DNA from: Thermoanaerobaculia bacterium
GTDB taxonomy: Bacteria; Acidobacteriota; Thermoanaerobaculia; Multivoradales; SZUA-115
Assembly: GCA_044869955.1 (NCBI GenBank)
Contig: JBIOYC010000074.1
Location: 9,114-73,113, forward strand
Length of the DNA stretch: 64,000 bases
Direction: 5' to 3'
Under the pieces are notes generated by a model. The model ran no database searches. It saw nothing but the letters and a program-made list of their open reading frames with translations, and was not told the origin of the DNA. Shown here one piece after another: positions 1,722-59,626 of the stretch; the stretch's first letter is position 1, and the number at the start of each line of letters is the position of its first letter. The position numbers and the translations under genes were made by a program.

Positions 1722-2150
1722 CTAGTCCGAGATTTCCTTCAGGCTCTTCAGGGGGCGGATGCGCACGGCTTTGCGGGCGGGCTTGGCCGGGATGAGCATC
1801 TCCTTGCCGGTGAAGGGGTTGACGCCCTTCTTGGCCTTGGTCGCGGCGCGCTTGACGACGCGGACCTTGAGCAGGCCCGGCAGGGTGAAGGTGCCGGCGC
1901 CGCGGCTCTTGAGATGACGGTGGACGACGTCGGTGAGGCAGTCGAAGACCTTGGTGACGTCCTTCTTGGCGATGCCGGTGTCCTCGGCGATCGCGGCGAA
2001 GAGCTGGGCCTTGGTGTAGGCGTCCTTGATCGCCGCGCCGGCGCGCTTGGCAGCCGGGGCCGCCTTCGGCGCCGCCTTGGGGGCGGCCTTGGCCGTCTTG
2101 GCGGCCTTCGCAGGAGCCTTGGCCGCTGCCTTGGTGGTCTTGCCAGCCAT
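1722..2150 (-). CDS. hup: HU/IHF-family nucleoid protein with an Ala/Lys/Pro-rich histone H1-like N-terminal tail
   Basis: The C-terminal 90 aa match the HU fold (FTLPGLLKVRVVKR, NPFTGKEMLIPAKP). The N-terminus is AKAAPKAAPK repeats. A strong SD GAGGAGAGAGA lies upstream of the ATG. Confidence 0.85.
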   Translation of the reverse strand: MAGKTTKAAAKAPAKAAKTAKAAPKAAPKAAPAAKRAGAAIKDAYTKAQLFAAIAEDTGIAKKDVTKVFDCLTDVVHRHLKSRGAGTFTLPGLLKVRVVKRAATKAKKGVNPFTGKEMLIPAKPARKAVRIRPLKSLKEISD

Positions 2151-45347: not shown

Positions 45348-48038
45348 CTACTCCCGCACCACCCGGAAACCCCGGTAGGCCGGCGCGGCGTCGCCCGAGC
45401 CCTTGGGAGCGCGCGGCTGGTCGGCGCTGGGGCCCAGGAGCTTGGCGCTGCCATCCTCGGCGAGGACCCACTCGGCGGCGTTGCCACCGAGGTCGAAGAG
45501 GGGCTCGGTGGTGCCCAGGGCGTCGAAGCGGCCGACCTCGGCGAGCAGGGGACCCTCGCCACCGAGGGCCGCGGCGGCGTTGCGGAGAGCCTCGGCCTCC
45601 TCGGGGTTGGGAGCGAACCCAGCCCAGTGGTCGAGGGTGTTCCCCAAGGTGCCAGCCGACTTGCGCAAGGCGGCCACCTCGGCCTCGCGGGGCAGCCGGT
45701 AGCGCTCGCCCGTCCTCATCGAGAGCCACTCGCAGTAGGCCCGGGCCTGCTCGAAGAGGATGCCTGTGGCCGGGTAGTTCGCCCTCGCGGCTGGCACCGG
45801 GTAGGTTGGATCGAACGTGGCGTACTGCGCGCGGGTGACCTCGAAGCGGCCGAGGGTCAACCCCTCGTGGGCCACCACCTCGGGGACCAGGACTCCCGCC
45901 ACCAGTCGCCCCAGCCGGCCATCGCTGGCGACGGAGCGGGCCCGCTCGAGGGCCCGGCCGAGGGGGGAAGTCGGCGCGAGCGCCGCTGGTTCCGGCGGGA
46001 CCTTGGTGAAGAGGTAGCGGTCGAGCCAGGCGAGCTCTTCCTCGACCTTGCGCCGCTGGTGGACGTAGCGGCCGAGACCGTGAGGCTCGCCGGGAAAGAG
46101 CACCAGCCGCACGGTGCGTCCGGCTTGCTGCAGGGCCCGGTAGAGGGACCAGCTCTGGCTGGGGGGGACGTTGCGGTCCTCGGTGCCGGTAAAGACGATC
46201 GTCGGCGTGGTCACCTCGGGCAAGCGGAAGAAGGGGCTCTTGTCGACATAGCGCTGGGGGTCCTCGAGCGGCGAGGCTCCGAAGTAGAGCTGGTCGAAGG
46301 CGGCGCCGAAGTCGACGTTGCCCCAGTCGCTGATCCACTCCACGTCCGCGGCGCCGATCGAGGCTGCCTTGTAGCGGTGGGTGCGGGTGATCAACTCGGC
46401 CGAGAGAATGCCGCCGTTCGACCAGCCGGTGGTGGCCAGGCGCTCGGGGTCGACCAGGCCACGGGCGATCAGAGCGTTCACCCCGGCTTCGAGGTCGGGG
46501 ATCTCGAGCTCGTAGTACTTGCCGCCTGTGATCGACTCCACCCACTCGAGACCGTAGTTGCTGCTGCCGTGGTAGTTGACCTCGAGCACGAAGGCGCCCC
46601 GGGAGAGCCACAGGGGCAGGGGCTTACTGACCCGGAAGGTCCACTGGTCGAGGTCGGCCCCGGCCGGGCCGCCATGGATGGCGAGGATGAGCGGCCGGCG
46701 CTCGCCCTCGCGCCAGTCGAAGGGGTAGCGCAGGATCCCCTCTACCTCGTCGCCTCGGGCGCCGCGGAAGCGCATCACCGCGCTCTTGGGCCGCGGCTTG
46801 CCGGCCCAGCCGGGGTTGGGGTGGATCGTCGGCTCCGAGGCCACGAGACGCGTCCCCTCGAGCCGAGCGCGCATCCAGACCGGAGGGTCCGAGGGCGTTG
46901 AGTGCTCGTAGAGGATGCGCTGGCCGTCGCGGCTCGCGACCCAATGGAAGACGTGGCCGGCGTGCTCGCCTTCGAGAGCGGAGCGCCGGTGGCTCGACCC
47001 GTTTCGCACGAAGCGGGCAGGGCGGTGGCGGACGCCGTCGGCGAGGAGGGCCAGGAAGCCGTCCGGAGTGGCGGTGAGGGAGCCGACCTCGCCCAGCCCA
47101 CGCGCCCAGCCAAGATCGACCTTCTGCTGGCGCCCGCTCACCACGTCGTAGTGGTAGACCTCGCTGATCGTGGCCTGGAGGTAGACGGGGTGGCTCGCAC
47201 GCTCGGCGGCGAAGTAGAAGCCCTGGCTGGCCGGTTGCCAGGCGACGTGGGAGGGGAACAGTCGGCTGCCCTCGAGGAGCCGTCGGGACTCGCCGGTCCC
47301 GAGGTCGGTCAACCAGGTGGAAGGTGCCAGCCGATTGTCGTAGCCGAAGGCGAGGCTCTGCTGGCGGCGGGTCACGGCCCAACGGCCGTTGGGCGAGACG
47401 GCGAGCAGGTCGATCCAGTCCCGGTTGTCGGTCAGCCGGGTGATCTCTCCCGACTCCAGGGCCAGGCGGAAGAGGCGGGTGGGAGGGGTGAGCGGATCCT
47501 CGACGACGATCGAGGTGTCCTTGGCCTTCTCGGTCTCGAGCTCCAGGCGCGTTGGCTCCTCCGGAGCCACGAGGACGACGTGCCCATCGTCCTGCCAGGC
47601 GAAGGTGGCCAGGGGCCGGGCCAGCGAGGTCACCGGCCAGGGCTCGCCGCCACCGAGGTCGAGCAGGAAGAGCTGGCTCGGCGCGAGCTTCTCGTCAGCT
47701 GCCTTCTCGCCGCGCCGGGGCCGATCCGAGAGGAAAGCTAGGCGGCGGCCGTCGGGAGAGAAGCGGGGGGAGCCGTGGTGGTCGGCGCCGCGGGTCAGGG
47801 CGAGCTCGCGGCCGTCGTCGAGCGAGGTCAGGAAGAGGTTGGAGGCGACGGTTCCCTTCTCCTTGTCCATCACCCGCTTGACCCACACTGCGCTACGTCC
47901 GTCCGGGGCGATCTCGACCTCCTGCACCGTCTCCTGGAGCAGCAGGTCGTCGACCGTCCACTCGCTGCTGCCGGCGACGGCGGGCTGGTTGACGCAGAGG
48001 GCGAGGAGAAGAGTCAAGGCCGAGACTGGCGAGCGCAT
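45348..48038 (-). CDS. Secreted tri-domain protein: TolB-like beta-propeller, S9 prolyl-oligopeptidase-family alpha/beta hydrolase, and a C-terminal FGE-sulfatase (SUMF1-like) domain
   Basis: Signal peptide. PD40-like repeats (SPRFSPDGRRLAFLSDR). S9 nucleophile GWSNGG. C-terminal GNAAEWV and YRGFRVVRE are typical of formylglycine-generating-enzyme domains. Confidence 0.7.
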   Translation of the reverse strand: MRSPVSALTLLLALCVNQPAVAGSSEWTVDDLLLQETVQEVEIAPDGRSAVWVKRVMDKEKGTVASNLFLTSLDDGRELALTRGADHHGSPRFSPDGRRLAFLSDRPRRGEKAADEKLAPSQLFLLDLGGGEPWPVTSLARPLATFAWQDDGHVVLVAPEEPTRLELETEKAKDTSIVVEDPLTPPTRLFRLALESGEITRLTDNRDWIDLLAVSPNGRWAVTRRQQSLAFGYDNRLAPSTWLTDLGTGESRRLLEGSRLFPSHVAWQPASQGFYFAAERASHPVYLQATISEVYHYDVVSGRQQKVDLGWARGLGEVGSLTATPDGFLALLADGVRHRPARFVRNGSSHRRSALEGEHAGHVFHWVASRDGQRILYEHSTPSDPPVWMRARLEGTRLVASEPTIHPNPGWAGKPRPKSAVMRFRGARGDEVEGILRYPFDWREGERRPLILAIHGGPAGADLDQWTFRVSKPLPLWLSRGAFVLEVNYHGSSNYGLEWVESITGGKYYELEIPDLEAGVNALIARGLVDPERLATTGWSNGGILSAELITRTHRYKAASIGAADVEWISDWGNVDFGAAFDQLYFGASPLEDPQRYVDKSPFFRLPEVTTPTIVFTGTEDRNVPPSQSWSLYRALQQAGRTVRLVLFPGEPHGLGRYVHQRRKVEEELAWLDRYLFTKVPPEPAALAPTSPLGRALERARSVASDGRLGRLVAGVLVPEVVAHEGLTLGRFEVTRAQYATFDPTYPVPAARANYPATGILFEQARAYCEWLSMRTGERYRLPREAEVAALRKSAGTLGNTLDHWAGFAPNPEEAEALRNAAAALGGEGPLLAEVGRFDALGTTEPLFDLGGNAAEWVLAEDGSAKLLGPSADQPRAPKGSGDAAPAYRGFRVVRE

Positions 48039-53868: not shown

Positions 53869-56800
53869 CTACTTCAAGCGCAGGCGCTGCCAGCCCCCAT
53901 CCCCGCGCTGGCCGTTGGGGTTTTCGACGCGCACGTAATGCCAGTTCCAGTTGGCGGCGTCGAAGGCGAGGGCCGGGTCGAGAGGGACTTCCTGGAAGAG
54001 GAAGCCGTTGTCGGTGAAGGCGGCTGACACTGAAGGAGCGAAGGGACCCCCCAGGATCAGCCGCAGGTACTCGCGGGGGTCGAGCTCGGCGGCGGTCTCC
54101 CAGATCGGCCGGCCGGTGACAGGGTCGACGTCCCCGGTGGGATGGATCGGCAACGACATCGAGCGCAGTAGCACCTGCCCCGGCTGATTGGGCCGCTTGG
54201 TCAGGTCCGGTGGCGTGACGGCGGCGGGGTCGTCGTGGCTGAAGAGCACCAGCCTCGCCCCCGGTAAGATGCCGTTCGCGGCCACCCGTAAACGTCGCGG
54301 CGCCTCCCAACGAACCGCCGTGCCGAAAGCGCTCTCACCCGCCGGGGCGCTCGCTACCACGCCGGCCTGGAACAGGCGGACGGTGTGGGAGAAGAAGCCG
54401 CCGTGCTGGTTGTCGGCCGGATCCTGCCAGTTGAGGGTCATCTTCGGCACGGTGGCGTAGGCCGTGTTCGTGGCGATGGGCTGGAGCACCACGCCACTCG
54501 GGGCGCCCGGAGCGCTGGGTGAGGGTTGCCCGCTTGGCGCTGCCACTCGGCGCTCGCTGCCAAGCGGCGTCACCACCAACACCAGCCGATCGTTGGTCGA
54601 GCCCAGCAAGCTGGTCAGCTGGACGCGGGTCAGGCTCGCTCCCGGGGGCTCTTCGACAAAGAGGCTGGCACCTGGGTCGAACCAGAAGCCGCGGTCGGTG
54701 GCGCCCAGGTGGGCCTGCACGGCCAGCCCGTTGTTGGCCTTGCGCGTCTGGTCCTCGGCGAGGCCGAAGGCCGTGGTCGTCAGGGGATCGGCCAGGTTCG
54801 CCAGGTCCACGGTGTAGGCGATCCCCACCAGCGGGCCGACACCCCAGTCGAGCTCGTGGATGAACTGGTTGAGCTGTTGGAGGGTCGGGCAGAAGGGCAG
54901 GCCGGGCGGACAGAGAACGCCGCCGAAGAAATGACGGTCGAAGGCGTTGATCGTCGAGGTGCGGTTGAAGTCGGTGTTGGTCTGGAGGGGGTCCTTCAGG
55001 ATGAAGCCGGTGTGGAAGAGGCCCTCGAGCCCGGTGATCGGCGCGCCGTCCGGATCGACGGTGCCGGCGCGGGTCAGGCGAGCCTCCTTCTGGAACAGGC
55101 CGCGCAGGGCGGCCGTCTCGATCGGCTGGGTGGCGAGCTCCTCGGCATGATCGGCGGGATTGGTGCCGCCCACACGCTCGGTGATCTTGTTGTTGCTTCC
55201 CTCCGGCAAGGCATGACAGTGCGCGCAGGACATCAGCAGGTCGGACTGGATCAGGTGGTAGATGGTGAGGCCGGCCTGGGCGCCGGTGGGCAGGGGCGGC
55301 GGGAAGGTCTCGTCGACGAAGGGCTCGCCCGAGAACACCCGGCCCAGGGGCTGGCGGGGGTTGGGCGGATAGTTGACCGAGTTGATGAACTCCCGGAAGC
55401 CCTCCATCTCGTCGTCGGTGATCCCGGTTCCGGCGAGCAGGCTGACGAAGGCAGGCTTGAACTGGGTGAAGTCCTCGCGGTCGCCCCGCCAGTGGTAGGG
55501 GGCGTTGGTGAACAGGTCTTGGATCTCCGGCCCCACGTCGAAGTTGAGCAGTCCCTGGAGGGACTGCGTAACCATGTGCTCCTTGTCGGCCGGCCAGAAG
55601 CTCGGCATCAGCAGGCTGTCCTTGAGCTGGGGATCGATCGGCACCTGCACGCCGTCGCCCAGGTCCCAGGCGAGGCCGTCGGTGCGGCCGTCGATGTGGC
55701 AGCTCGAGCAGGAGTTGAAGCCGTTGCCGTGCTCGGCCGAGTAGAGGAAGGTGCGGCCAGCCTTGATGTGATCGGGAGTGGGGTCGTGCCGGAGGGCGAA
55801 CTGGCCGACCGAGGTCTCGGTCACCGGGTTGAGGATGGTCACCGAATTGTCGAGGCGATTGAGCACGTAGAGCCGCGGCCCGGGGTCGTTGGGGTTGCCG
55901 GCATCGGGCCCCTTGATCACCAGGCCGCGGGGCCCGGCGACCGGGCTCACGGAACCAGGGACCGGGGCCATGGCGATCCGCCGGAGGAGCCAGGAGTCGG
56001 CGGAGGAGGACCAGTCGGGCTCGATCACTCCGACCCGGTCGCTGCTCAGGGCGGTGAAGAACACCTTGAGCGGCCCGCTGGAGCCCCGGTAGGTGGCCAC
56101 TCCGGTGAGCTGGGCGAGGGCCTTGGTCTTGGGTACCGGCTGCATCGCCGGCAGCAGCGCCGCCTTGTGGGCCACGAAGCTGCCGAAGACCTCGGTGCCC
56201 GGCGCCACCAGAGGCTGGAGGGCGGGCTCGAGGTTGACGTCCCGGACCTTGAACGTGGGCGTGCCGGAGCACAGCCCACGCACCATCGTGAAGGTGCTCT
56301 TGACGAAGCCGGTCGGCGCGGCGGCCACCACCGCCTCGTCGCGCAAGGTGGTGTTCAAAGCCTCACCGCCGACGATGAAGAGGTCGTCTCCGGGCCCCCA
56401 GGTCATGTGGAAGTTGGCCGAATTGGGCAGGGCGAGGTCGGCGGCTGCACCGCCGGCCGTGGGCAGACTGTAGAGATCGAAGTCGAAGTGCTGCGTGTTG
56501 CCGCCCTTCTCGCCGAGCAGGAAGAGCTTGCCGCAGTGAACGTCGACGTCGCGGGGAGACTTGAGGGCGATGAGGTCGTTCTGCCCGTCCTGGTCGATGT
56601 CTCCCTTGGGCACGGTGGCATCGAAGAGGAACGCGCCCGGGATGATCGGCTGCAAGGTCAAGGCATCCCGCCAGCCGAGGGCGTCCTGGTCGCGATGCGC
56701 CAGGAAGAGGGAGTGACGCAGCACCGTGCCGCCAGCGCCGTCGTCCTCCTCGAAGGGATGGTAGGCGAGGGAGACCGGCTCGTCGCCCACCCAGTCGGTG

Positions 56801-57171
56801 CGCTCGACCGTCGCCACAACACCGGCCGTGTCGCCCGGGTCCAGGCGGATGATGGTCACCGAGTCTGACAGCGCGTTGGTGACGTAGAGCCGCGACAGCT
56901 GGGGCACCCAAAGCAGGGAGTTGGGCTCCAGGCCGGTGCGTACGCGAGCGATGAAGCGGGAGCCGATCGGTAGGGTCTCCTCGGTGTGGTAGAGCTCGAC
57001 CGAGTTGTCCGGGGTGTTGACCACCGCCAGGAACTGCCTGCCTCCGACCGAGACGATCGCCAGGGGATCGACCTGTACGGTCTCGGTGTTGAAGTAGTCG
57101 GTCCGGCCCTGGGCCAGCAAGGCCGGGGCCCAGAGCAGGGCGAAGAACCACAGCCAGCGCTTTGCTCTCAT
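53869..57171 (-). CDS. Large secreted protein: YVTN-type beta-propeller repeats fused to a di-heme cytochrome c peroxidase (CCP/MauG-like) domain
   Basis: Signal peptide. LYVTNALSDSVTI and LYVLNRLDNSVTIL are YVTN repeats. Two CxxCH heme sites (CSSCH, CAHCH). GGAGG SD. Confidence 0.7.
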   Translation of the reverse strand: MRAKRWLWFFALLWAPALLAQGRTDYFNTETVQVDPLAIVSVGGRQFLAVVNTPDNSVELYHTEETLPIGSRFIARVRTGLEPNSLLWVPQLSRLYVTNALSDSVTIIRLDPGDTAGVVATVERTDWVGDEPVSLAYHPFEEDDGAGGTVLRHSLFLAHRDQDALGWRDALTLQPIIPGAFLFDATVPKGDIDQDGQNDLIALKSPRDVDVHCGKLFLLGEKGGNTQHFDFDLYSLPTAGGAAADLALPNSANFHMTWGPGDDLFIVGGEALNTTLRDEAVVAAAPTGFVKSTFTMVRGLCSGTPTFKVRDVNLEPALQPLVAPGTEVFGSFVAHKAALLPAMQPVPKTKALAQLTGVATYRGSSGPLKVFFTALSSDRVGVIEPDWSSSADSWLLRRIAMAPVPGSVSPVAGPRGLVIKGPDAGNPNDPGPRLYVLNRLDNSVTILNPVTETSVGQFALRHDPTPDHIKAGRTFLYSAEHGNGFNSCSSCHIDGRTDGLAWDLGDGVQVPIDPQLKDSLLMPSFWPADKEHMVTQSLQGLLNFDVGPEIQDLFTNAPYHWRGDREDFTQFKPAFVSLLAGTGITDDEMEGFREFINSVNYPPNPRQPLGRVFSGEPFVDETFPPPLPTGAQAGLTIYHLIQSDLLMSCAHCHALPEGSNNKITERVGGTNPADHAEELATQPIETAALRGLFQKEARLTRAGTVDPDGAPITGLEGLFHTGFILKDPLQTNTDFNRTSTINAFDRHFFGGVLCPPGLPFCPTLQQLNQFIHELDWGVGPLVGIAYTVDLANLADPLTTTAFGLAEDQTRKANNGLAVQAHLGATDRGFWFDPGASLFVEEPPGASLTRVQLTSLLGSTNDRLVLVVTPLGSERRVAAPSGQPSPSAPGAPSGVVLQPIATNTAYATVPKMTLNWQDPADNQHGGFFSHTVRLFQAGVVASAPAGESAFGTAVRWEAPRRLRVAANGILPGARLVLFSHDDPAAVTPPDLTKRPNQPGQVLLRSMSLPIHPTGDVDPVTGRPIWETAAELDPREYLRLILGGPFAPSVSAAFTDNGFLFQEVPLDPALAFDAANWNWHYVRVENPNGQRGDGGWQRLRLK

Positions 57172-57272
57172 ACCTCCTCCTCACGGAGACCTCGGCTCGA
57201 AGGGGCGCCGGTCTCTCGTATCGAAGAAAGCGGATCTCTTGGAGTCGGGAGATAACGCCCTTCCCGGGCGCG

Positions 57273-57294
57273 CAAGGTGCCAGCCGAATTGCGG
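57273..57294 (+). repeat. Exact 22-nt repeat CAAGGTGCCAGCCGAATTGCGG, copy 2
   Basis: Identical to 52575-52596. It lies about 100 nt upstream of the cytochrome c peroxidase fusion gene start. Confidence 0.6.
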
Positions 57295-57304
57295 GACGAG
57301 GAGG

Positions 57305-57763
57305 TCAGCTGGGTGGAGAGGCCGCCTTCGTGGCGCCGGGCGGGCCGCCGTAGGTGGCGCGGACCCGCTCGGACGTGGCCAGGTAGGCGAGCCACACTCC
57401 ACAGAGGGCCATCGAGCCGAGGGCCAGGGGTCGCGGCTGCCCCGCCACCTGCCAGGCGTAGAGGGAGTTGGCGACCAAGACCGCCAGGCTGAGCGCCCAC
57501 CAGGTCCAGGCATGGGTCGGGGCATTCCGGTTCCTCGCCACCAGCAGAAGGCAGGCGACGGCGCCGTAGAGGCCCAGAGCGCCGCCGCCGAGGGCGAAGG
57601 CCCTCACCGCCGCGGGTTGACCGCCGTCGAAAGCGACCGGCGTGCCCATGACCGAGATGAACGACGTGATGGCCATCATCACGGTCATCAGGGCGAGCAG
57701 GCCCCGCACTCCGACGTAGGCGTTGTGGGGGCGGGAAGCCTCGGTCATGGGTGGGATCTCCAA
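57305..57763 (-). CDS. Small integral membrane protein (four predicted TM helices), hypothetical
   Basis: Hydrophobic segments and high GC3. It lies immediately downstream of the PrdB/GrdB-family gene on the same strand. Confidence 0.45.
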   Translation of the reverse strand: MEIPPMTEASRPHNAYVGVRGLLALMTVMMAITSFISVMGTPVAFDGGQPAAVRAFALGGGALGLYGAVACLLLVARNRNAPTHAWTWWALSLAVLVANSLYAWQVAGQPRPLALGSMALCGVWLAYLATSERVRATYGGPPGATKAASPPS

Positions 57764-57773
57764 GCGATCGGGA

Positions 57774-58517
57774 TCAGTCGAGGGTGTAGTCGGCGAGCAC
57801 CGGACCAGGGCCGGCGGCCGTCTCGAGCAGGGTGAGGGCGGCCTCGAGCACCCGGTGCTGGACGGCGGCGTCGCCGGGTGCGCCGAGGGCGTAGCCGTGT
57901 GGGAAGGGTACGGCCAGCGCCCGGGGCGGACGGGTCTTCTCGGCGATCATGCGCAGCAAGATGAGGGTCACGGTGGCGATGCCCCGGCGTTCCAGCTCGG
58001 CTGCGACCAGACTCACGGTCTGGTTGCACGTCGGTCACACGGGCACCAGCAGGGCGACGTCCACGCCGTCGGCGACGAAGCCCGCTGCGGCCTCCGGCGC
58101 CGACTCACCGATCAGGCGGCCGGGGGCGGTGATCGAGCCCATGAAGGAGAGGTGGCGGCTGTTGAGCTCGCCCAGCCGCCCGCTCGCCACCAGCTCGCGG
58201 GCGCGGTCGAGGGGCAGGGCGAGGTTGCGGTCGGCCGCCAGCCCGCTGTGATCGAAGGCGTCGCTCCTGTGGTTCTCGACCAGGCTTTGGAGAACGGCGT
58301 CGTGGGGGATCCAGCGATAGCTCCAGTCGCCGCCTTTGATCGTTTCGTCGAATCGAGGTTGGTCGGGCAGGGACAGCCCTCCCGAGGTCACCAGCCCGAG
58401 GCGGCCTTCGGCCAGGGGTCGGGGCAGGGGAGCCCAGGCTGGGGGGTCGATCCGTCGCCACGGGTAGGTCGTCAGGAAAACTCGGTACTTCCAGGGCATC
58501 TCGTCGAGGCGCGCCAT
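57774..58517 (-). CDS. PrdB/GrdB-family (glycine/sarcosine/betaine/D-proline reductase protein B) protein; candidate selenoprotein with an in-frame TGA (Sec) near 58036
   Basis: The track gives two same-frame ORFs (58035..58517 and 57774..58016) separated only by one TGA and six sense codons (PTCNQT). The readthrough product ...GVDVALLVPV-U-PTCNQTVSLVAAELERRGIATV... resembles the Sec motif region of PrdB/GrdB as I recall it. A hairpin lies 11 nt 3' of the TGA. Confidence 0.55.
58011..58028 (-). promoter_or_regulatory. SECIS-like stem-loop (CCAG(G)AC-CGUGA-GUCUGG) 11 nt downstream of the in-frame UGA
   Basis: A 6-bp stem with a 5-nt loop, possibly with one bulged G, read directly. Its position matches the bacterial SECIS spacing rule. 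Exact coordinates are ±1. Confidence 0.4.
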
Positions 58518-58843
58518 GGCGCGATACTACCGTCGCGCCCCCGCCTTCACGTCGCCCCTCGAGGCTGGCCCAGCCGTGTTCGACGCCCCCCGACCTCGCC
58601 TCGCCTCCCTGCCTGCTCTCTCGGCTCGGGCGGTCAGCAGCCTCCCGTGGCGACCGGATCATCGGAAAAACAGAATGCAATTTATGCTAGACATAGGCAA
58701 GATTGACATTTGATGCTCTCATGGCTATCATCACGCCAAGCTCAAGGTACTTTCCGGATCTTGCGGGGAGCACACCGCCCCAGACGCACCATCGCTCGCT
58801 CCGGGAGACTGGTCTCCCGAGACATCGCCAGGAGGTTGAAGCC

Positions 58844-59626
58844 ATGCTTCGTCGCTCGCTGCTCCTACTCCTCGGTCTCGTCTTGCTCGCCCCTTCACTT
58901 CTCGCCGCGGACCCGGTCGTCTTCAGTGGGGTCGACGCCTTCCGCACCGTGGCCAGCCGGACCTTCACGGACTTGGCCAACGACCCCATCCCGGCCGGCT
59001 TCTTCTGCCCGGGCTCGGCCCCGTTCGCAGGCAAGATCCAGCTCAAGGGCGTGCCGCTCGCGGTCGAGCCCGCCAACGCGCTCCGAGGGGCGGACACCCT
59101 CTTCCTCCGCCTGGATGATGCCGCCTTCAACGAAGAGGGCATCGCCCAGACCCGCCTCCAGATGCAGGCTCTCTCGCTCGCCAGCGTCAAGCCCATCCGC
59201 ACCAGCTGCGGTGCTTACCGGGTGCGCGTCACTCTGGCGGAAGGTGACCAGCCCATCTCGCCCAAGCACCACATGACGATCGTGCGGGAGAGCGAGCGCG
59301 GTGGCTACTTCCTCTCCGAGTTCCAGATTCGCTACAAGCTGACCTTCGTGCCAGTGGCTGGTGGCCCGAACCTGGAGCTGGAGCGGACCTCCCGCTTCTC
59401 CGGCGGCGCCGACCACAAGTGGGCGTTCCTCAACGAGGATCAAGGCGCCTTCGCCGGCACCGTGAAGGTGGACACCAACGGCGATGGCAAGCCCGACACC
59501 AGCCTTGCCGGAGTCTCCAACTTTGCAGCGGGGCGCCAGGCCAGGCAGCTGCTTGGCGGTACCGGCACCAGCAGCTCCTTCCAAGAGCTCTCGACCGGCG
59601 ACTGTGCCACTCACGGCATCGAGTAG
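58844..59626 (+). CDS. Secreted hypothetical protein
   Basis: GGAGG SD 8 nt upstream. Signal peptide MLRRSLLLLLGLVLLAPSLLAA. The upstream 47 codons of the track ORF are rejected. Confidence 0.55.
   Translation: MLRRSLLLLLGLVLLAPSLLAADPVVFSGVDAFRTVASRTFTDLANDPIPAGFFCPGSAPFAGKIQLKGVPLAVEPANALRGADTLFLRLDDAAFNEEGIAQTRLQMQALSLASVKPIRTSCGAYRVRVTLAEGDQPISPKHHMTIVRESERGGYFLSEFQIRYKLTFVPVAGGPNLELERTSRFSGGADHKWAFLNEDQGAFAGTVKVDTNGDGKPDTSLAGVSNFAAGRQARQLLGGTGTSSSFQELSTGDCATHGIE

Follow-up and report, generated by a model that had tools for sequence, protein, structure and literature searches.

The closest described relatives of the gene studied here, a very probable selenoprotein gene at positions 57774 to 58517 (minus strand) of a 64-kb stretch of Thermoanaerobaculia DNA (contig JBIOYC010000074.1; hereafter the window), are those encoding PrdB, a subunit of D-proline reductase, and the reductase proteins GrdB, GrdF and GrdH (PF07355; TIGR01917, TIGR01918). 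The chemistry of PrdB and GrdB has been summarised (PMC13188914). Three metagenome surveys have counted selenocysteine (Sec)-containing members of the PrdB family. The Sargasso Sea survey of 2005 lists ‘Proline reductase (PrdB)’, with a UXXC motif, as the third most abundant known selenoprotein family, with 42 Sec versus 1 Cys form (PMC1088965). A survey of the Olavius symbionts in 2007 counts five PrdB selenoproteins in the delta-1 symbiont (PMC1976440), and the Global Ocean Sampling survey of 2008 gives 235 Sec versus 110 Cys forms, assigned to pfam07355 (PMC2398784).

The family has been known as a selenoprotein family since 2005; its discovery is old and the window gene is an added member. 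The gene shares with the family of the surveys the pfam07355 assignment, the UxxC Sec motif, a large excess of Sec over Cys forms and an occurrence in non-Stickland organisms. It differs in that the passages of those surveys dealing with the family file it under proline reductase and set apart no stand-alone clade without PrdA. The genome of the Olavius delta-1 symbiont carries an ortholog of the window gene with the same TGA (L077), and the exact ortholog group of the window gene is presumably included in the survey counts.

A PrdB-like gene with an in-frame UGA

A preliminary description of this locus had reported two open reading frames (ORFs) in the same frame, 58035 to 58517 and 57774 to 58016, split by one TGA, with the codons PTCNQT before an annotated GTG. 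Translation of 57774-58517 on the minus strand in a single frame agrees with this layout and yields 247 codons with a single internal stop. The upstream piece starts at the ATG at 58517 and forms an ORF of 160 codons, with the C-terminal end ...GVDVALLVPV, which is stopped by the TGA at 58037-58035. After this TGA there are six in-frame sense codons, PTCNQT (58034-58017), and the frame then continues with VSLVAAELERRGIATV... to the true stop, the TGA at 57776-57774. Since one translation gives the entire product, no frameshift is needed, and the caution in the same description about a discrepancy of one base was an unfounded misreading. The internal UGA (58035-58037) is codon 161 of the 247-amino acid (aa) product. 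The TGC at 58026-58028 encodes Cys164, the second redox residue of a U-P-T-C motif. The GTG at 58016-58014, taken by the ORF finder as the start of ORF 57774-58016, is the Val168 codon and lies inside the loop of the hairpin described below. The G+C content of the window is 70%. A genome-wide recoding of TGA was also considered and was rejected because TGA is the ordinary stop of 18 of the 42 other genes in the window.

We searched 5.8 billion proteins and obtained 3,241 relatives, of which the best 120 were looked at. Most of these 120 are exactly 160 aa long, cut at the UGA codon, and the remainder are ∼247 aa. Several of the 160-aa entries, from Thermoanaerobaculia or Limisphaerales, are named ‘glycine/sarcosine/betaine reductase selenoprotein B family protein’. 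The full-length homologs are co-linear with the window product to its end, and Cys occupies the UGA column in all of the 20 that were aligned, within the motif PV-C-PxC-[NH]Q. The column of Cys164 is nearly invariant in the family and is conserved in true PrdB. A profile search of 1.84 billion cluster representatives gave 3,390 relatives, 181 of them at E ≤1e-30, many being 160-aa truncations. Among distant Cys-type relatives, six (P0131, P0133, P0147, P0149, P0152 and P0160) are 380-420 aa long and have an extra C-terminal region of ∼150 residues, for which no Pfam match and no functional hint was found. Another relative, P0183, has an N-terminal helix-turn-helix domain.

Two unbiased scans were carried out at the DNA level, one of GTDB species genomes, with 487 relatives of which the best 80 loci (L002-L081) were used, and one of metagenomes seeded with Cys-type proteins (80 loci). 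A TGA stands at the Sec column in 80/80 of the best GTDB loci. Even with Cys-type seeds, the metagenome scan returned 79 TGA forms versus 1 Cys form, so that TGA is found at this column in 159 of the 160 pooled loci, in many phyla. Among the hosts are Thermoanaerobaculia and other Acidobacteriota, Verrucomicrobiota, Desulfobacterota, Myxococcota, Binatia, Gemmatimonadota, Planctomycetota, Nitrospirota and the Olavius delta-1 symbiont. The nearest relative, at 86-88% identity, comes from a Thermoanaerobaculia metagenome-assembled genome, and an independent assembly of the identical sequence (L001) has the same TGA. An in-frame UGA conserved in orthologs, with Cys in homologs, is the pattern of a bacterial selenoprotein. 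The supposition that such a protein would be unusual in a high-GC lineage was wrong, as the 487 GTDB relatives belong mostly to high-GC soil and sediment phyla and nearly all of those examined are Sec forms.

The coding sequence continues under selection after the UGA. In all of 74 loci no stop interrupts the frame within the 80 codons that follow the TGA, whereas the other two frames contain stops in 63/74 and 38/74. Ratios of nonsynonymous to synonymous substitution (dN/dS) between the window gene and its relatives are 0.21-0.42 downstream of the UGA and 0.21-0.41 upstream; for the downstream half and the closest relative (86% identity) the ratio is 0.33. Variation at codon positions 1, 2 and 3 is 0.16, 0.12 and 0.44 downstream, compared with 0.18, 0.14 and 0.46 upstream. 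Judged by these substitution patterns, the ∼86 codons after the UGA are translated, and purifying selection acts on them as it does on the codons before the UGA. We therefore consider it very probable that both ORFs belong to a single gene, that its UGA is decoded as Sec and that its product is a selenoprotein of 247 residues.

Relationship to PrdB and GrdB

The preliminary description had placed the protein in the PrdB/GrdB family (PF07355), and the family models agree. With Cys put in place of the stop, residues 25-234 match positions 17-221 of the 238 in the PrdB model TIGR04483 (E=6.2e-36, 124 bits), and residues 14-158 match positions 202-345 of the 347 in PF07355 at 26.7 bits (E=4e-6), above the gathering threshold of 22; the PF07355 match is precomputed also on homologs. 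The GrdB, GrdF and GrdH models match the window protein over their C-terminal halves only, at 42-49 bits, and TIGR01918 gave 44 bits versus a curated cutoff of 65.45.

For a direct comparison we used annotated prdB genes found by tblastn against plasmid records, one of which belongs to a canonical prdC-prdA-x-prdB cluster carried by a Terrisporobacter plasmid of 21 kb. When the proteins were aligned with MAFFT, the window UGA was in exactly the same column as the annotated Sec UGA (residue 151) in two genuine PrdB proteins, from Terrisporobacter (pTPDSL1) and Peptoclostridium acidaminophilum. The segment LLTAG-U-GTCHRS...EEAGIPT of PrdB aligns with LLVPV-U-PTCNQT...ERRGIAT of the window protein, so that U-G-T-C in PrdB corresponds to U-P-T-C here. 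The U-x-T-C motif and the E..GIPT block, which the preliminary description had named, are thus both present, the latter as E..GI[AP]T, and the TGA column carries Sec in PrdB as it carries Cys in the full-length homologs.

The window protein resembles PrdB (TIGR04483) in its length of ∼240 aa, in co-linearity over the entire protein and in the UGA-encoded Sec in the aligned column, where U-x-T-C follows a hydrophobic strand and is itself followed by an E-x-x-G-I-[AP]-T helix/strand. Both proteins also contain S-[FY]-R, D-x-N-x-x-F-P-[LI]-D-R and P-R motifs. It differs in having FMGSITAPGR where PrdB has FMGGGG and in a YPWRRID insertion near the N-terminus. Compared with GrdB, GrdF and GrdH, the protein is homologous to the C-terminal half including the Sec region (model positions ∼200-425 of 431), but the N-terminal ∼200 residues are absent, the scores of 44-49 bits compare with curated cutoffs of 65-800, and neither GrdA nor GrdE is encoded near the gene. 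A UxxCxxC motif has been described for GrdB (PMC13188914), whereas the window protein has UxxC followed by NQ. By its sequence, the window protein is a stand-alone distant relative of PrdB and of the GrdB C-terminal domain and not an equivalog. Its clade has the signature FMGSITAPGR ... PV-U-PxC-NQ[TA]V, a length of ∼247 aa, almost always the Sec form and no linked PrdA or GrdE.

Could the gene nevertheless encode a true PrdB subunit of D-proline reductase, with the PrdA proprotein and PrdC, PrdD and PrdE encoded elsewhere in the genome? The top family model is PrdB over its full length, the Sec column, the UxxC and the motifs listed above are shared with genuine PrdB, and the annotation of the Joint Genome Institute (JGI) names homologs ‘D-proline reductase (dithiol) PrdB’. 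However, the score of 124 bits compares with an equivalog cutoff of 300, and identity to the two genuine PrdB proteins is 72/237 and 77/234 (30-33%). Tblastn with clostridial PrdA, PrdC, PrdD and a PrdE-like protein found nothing in the window or in the flanks of 163 homologous loci (1.23 Mb). Genuine prdB is part of a prdC-prdA-prdB cluster, whereas the window gene has no linked prdA, prdC, prdD or prdE and indeed no conserved neighbour at all, and its clade is hosted by non-clostridial phyla, mostly soil and sediment Acidobacteriota, Verrucomicrobiota and the like, which are not Stickland fermenters. We regard a true PrdB as unlikely. A complete D-proline reductase cluster (prdD, prdC, prdA, a small ORF, prdB and a component-B-like gene) is carried by the ∼21-kb, non-mobilizable Terrisporobacter petrolearius plasmid pTPDSL1 (NZ_CP154617.1, L165), and clusters of this type were also seen on seven similar plasmids.

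As no pyruvoyl partner (PrdA/GrdE) is linked to the gene, the substrate is probably not D-proline. Many polar residues that are invariant across the family, and partly so in PrdB, point to a true substrate site and not to a simple carrier of redox equivalents. We lean, by a modest degree, towards viewing the clade as a self-contained selenoenzyme with its own substrate and not as a proline reductase subunit.

An AlphaFold2 model of a Cys homolog (predicted local distance difference test 95) places residue 161 between a strand (154-158) and a helix (164-177), with Cys164 at the first turn of that helix. No PDB entry matched in a sequence profile search at E up to 1. If the chemistry is like that of PrdB and GrdB, the most likely case, the selenolate of U161, between the β-strand and the N-terminus of the helix, would attack the bound substrate; the adduct would then be resolved by Cys164 as a selenenylsulfide, and a thiol system would reduce it again. 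It counts against this picture that the model is of a 62%-identical Cys homolog and not of the window protein, and that the proposed catalytic mechanism and substrate are drawn from the PrdB/GrdB analogy only.

The hairpin downstream of the UGA

In the published model of the bacterial Sec insertion sequence (SECIS), the element has a loop of 3-9 nt, a stem of 4-16 bp, 16-37 nt between the UGA and the loop and a minimum free energy ≤-7.5 kcal/mol, with a G as the first or second loop nucleotide and, as a rule, G or U after it (PMC13188914). The hairpin CCAGAC-CGUGA-GUCUGG, proposed earlier to be such an element, is present at 58023-58007, 11 nt after the UGA, and extends to 7 bp. At its full length it covers 58006-58024 (minus strand), with the 5′ arm ACCAGAC at 58024-58018, the apical loop CGUGA at 58017-58013 and the 3′ arm GUCUGGU at 58012-58006; the Val168 codon GTG begins with the G-U at 58016-58015 in the loop. 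The spacer after the UGA is 10 nt. The 5-nt loop beginning C-G-U, the 7-bp stem, the distance of 17 nt from UGA to loop and the folding energy of -9.8 kcal/mol all lie inside the published ranges. Like the bSECISearch consensus and elements of the E. coli fdhF type, the hairpin is in the coding region directly 3′ of the UGA and has G then U at loop positions 2-3; it differs in that neither a lower stem nor a bulge is evident in the family consensus.

Folded alone, the hairpin has a z-score of -2.8, and 3 of 200 shuffled sequences fold as well. In its 71-nt context the z-score is only -1.04, which is not exceptional, so that the fold of this one sequence gives weak support, and the argument is carried by comparison between sequences. 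Using 74 unique sequences, RNAalifold independently predicted the identical 7-bp helix with a 5-nt loop. The stem positions are paired in 98.6% of cases, versus 17-33% when the partner is slid by 1-3 columns. Double changes were found in 33 cases in three pairs, and the observed score was reached by none of 500 shuffles. Among 132 unique Sec-type sequences, the pair +18/+26 is A-U in 74, G-C in 48, G-U in 8 and mismatched in 2, and the pair +14/+30 is C-G in 115, U-A in 11 and U-G in 2. Shared ancestry was addressed by Fitch parsimony on a neighbour-joining tree made from the protein without the hairpin codons, and at least 21 independent switches between A-U and G-C were obtained for +18/+26, a count that is approximate and inflated by tree error.

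The loop, N-G-U-N-N, has G-U at positions 2-3 in 131 of the 132 unique Sec-type sequences and in 0/4 Cys-type genes. At the protein level, Val at the loop codon is present in 130/132 Sec-type sequences versus 3/32 Cys-type proteins. The peptide over the hairpin is NQ[TA]V[SGC]L in Sec forms, compared with NQSSDL, NQTMCL or HQAAGL in Cys forms. These residues follow from the RNA: Val (GUN) gives the loop G-U, and Ser (AGY), Gly and Cys codons all have G at position 2, which pairs with the C of the Thr or Ala codon. In 10-11 sequences a change of Asn AAC to AAU goes with a change of Val to Ile (GUC to AUC), so that the RNA pair is kept and the amino acid is changed. It is the loop G-U and the peptide, and not the stem, that set Sec forms apart from Cys forms.

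Several results weigh against the hairpin as a SECIS, besides the modest z-score in context. Five of the seven stem pairs follow nearly free from the conserved N-Q...L-V codons, and the four Cys-type genes retain 5-7 of the 7 pairs, one of them (L083) all 7, so that the stem alone is weaker evidence than it appears. The DNA control consists of these 4 Cys-type genes only and was supplemented at the protein level with the 32 Cys-type proteins. An Rfam search of 56500-59500 at E up to 10 gave chance microRNA and small nucleolar RNA matches only and no SECIS family. The perfect 7/7 hairpin of the Cys-type gene L083:6001-6744 (JGI 3300033402) is at the SECIS position and has the loop AGCCG, lacking the G-U; it could be a fossil SECIS left after a change from Sec to Cys, or a by-product of the codons.

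One may ask whether the window hairpin too is a by-product of conserved amino acids and GC-rich codons, with Sec inserted through another signal. The codons CAG (Gln), CUG (Leu) and AAC...GUC do give five pairs without selection at the RNA level, and the pairing retained in Cys-type genes is in keeping with this. Yet the two pairs that are not fixed by conserved residues covary with repeated independent switches, the coupled Asn codon and Val-to-Ile changes keep a pair at a cost in amino acid, 99% of Sec forms have the loop G-U and Cys forms lack it, and position and size fit the published model. We judge a codon by-product to be very unlikely. That the hairpin 58024-58006 acts as a bacterial SECIS is well supported by the published criteria and by covariation. 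During translation it would recruit SelB with Sec-tRNA(Sec), and the UGA at 58037-58035 would be read as U161 and not as a stop.

Genomic context and meaning of the gene

Sec decoding requires machinery that was sought near the gene. ARAGORN, Pfam and tblastn with E. coli SelA, SelB and SelD revealed no selA, selB, selD or tRNA-Sec in the window, and the same tblastn queries found nothing in the 1.23-Mb flanks around the 163 homologous loci, where no tRNA-Sec was seen either; these negatives, too, stand on the opposing side. ARAGORN found no tRNA of any kind in the window, and the Pfam scan of the window genes no SelA, SelB, SelD, PrdA/GrdE or other reductase component. No convincing second selenoprotein gene, which could serve as a proxy for Sec use, was seen in the window. 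The only other TGA-split ORF pair to pass a filter on G+C at the third codon position, with its TGA at 1915-1917 (plus strand), has a first-position G+C of 0.36-0.48, atypical for the genome; rather than a second selenoprotein, it is probably an antisense or non-coding frame.

From the missing sel genes, tRNA-Sec and second selenoprotein gene it might be concluded that the family is one of selenoproteins whose decoding machinery has been lost in this genome, the window copy being an untranslated relic. We give this little credence, as nothing in the gene is broken, its stem is complete (7/7) and its loop matches the consensus, and the dN/dS of its downstream half against the closest relative indicates purifying selection. 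In addition, 64 kb is a small sample of a genome, in which the absence of four unlinked genes is expected, and Acidobacteriota include documented Sec users (PMC12013277). We infer that the window's own genome decodes Sec. It is scarcely credible that the TGA is a real stop, whether in a pseudogene, through an error of sequencing or between two genes of which the second has its own ATG or GTG. In favour of such a stop, the ORF finder gives the downstream piece a GTG start, an ATG (Met) stands two codons beyond the TGA in many homologs, and only the 160-aa product is called in public annotation. Against it, the same TGA recurs across phyla and in the independent assembly, contiguous Cys-containing homologs exist, the window has ACG and not ATG two codons past the TGA, the GTG is inside the hairpin loop, and the PTCNQT codons that separate the TGA from the GTG rank with the best conserved in the protein.

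Clustering of the ORFs near the homologs gave no conserved partner gene, and the window gene is therefore a stand-alone unit. A small membrane-protein ORF (57305-57763, minus strand) with approximately four hydrophobic segments lies 25 nt downstream of the gene, with which it is probably co-transcribed; its product has a sub-threshold match to DUF2569 (24.7 bits versus 26.5). The four-transmembrane neighbour noted earlier is thus real and on the same strand, but it is not a conserved partner, since a gene of this type is next to none of the ∼150 homologs, including the closest relative. The sole recurrent neighbour of the family is a fusion of an alpha/beta-hydrolase (Hydrolase_4) with an OsmC-like domain, found at 17 of 153 loci (e.g. 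L067:6019-7239, ∼130 nt downstream on the same strand) and absent from the window. This neighbour hints at a link to peroxide or redox stress.

Other features of the window were also recorded. The 1100-residue ORF at 53869-57171 (minus strand) has no Pfam match at 1e-5 and contains two CxxCH haem-c motifs (..NSCSSCHIDG.. and ..LMSCAHCHALP..); its predicted product may be an uncharacterised di-haem protein. A strong sigma-70-like site, TTGACA-17-TATCAT, with 11/12 matches (0.1 expected from shuffles), is found at 58703-58731 (plus strand) in a divergent intergenic region, facing gene 58703-59626, which has no Pfam match. The ORF at 45348-48038 (minus strand) encodes an 896-residue protein with a prolyl-oligopeptidase (Peptidase_S9) domain and an FGE-sulfatase-like domain.

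The gene calls of NCBI HEX4953625.1 (P0007), P0001 and most of the best protein matches end at residue 160, and the 3′ third of the family genes is either a separate ORF of ∼80-86 aa in public calls or uncalled. NCBIfam has no dedicated model for the clade of the window gene, and the truncation at 160 aa is therefore systematic in databases. An annotation that ends at residue 160 loses the active-site Sec, the resolving Cys and one third of the protein. Hundreds of entries would be mended by a model made for this family, with its Sec column marked.

If the clade is a self-contained selenoenzyme, it would be a widespread one, present in Acidobacteriota, Verrucomicrobiota, Desulfobacterota, Myxococcota, Binatia and Gemmatimonadota of soils and sediments, which selenoproteome censuses have lumped with ‘proline reductase’ and genome annotation has truncated. 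The SECIS of this gene provides an example of RNA structure dictating the choice of amino acids within a coding region. The gene is a clean marker of Sec use in Thermoanaerobaculia-like Acidobacteriota and in several further phyla of soils and sediments. Its enzyme is a reasonable biochemical target, as it is abundant, is nearly obligate for Sec and lacks the pyruvoyl partner by which the related reductases are defined.

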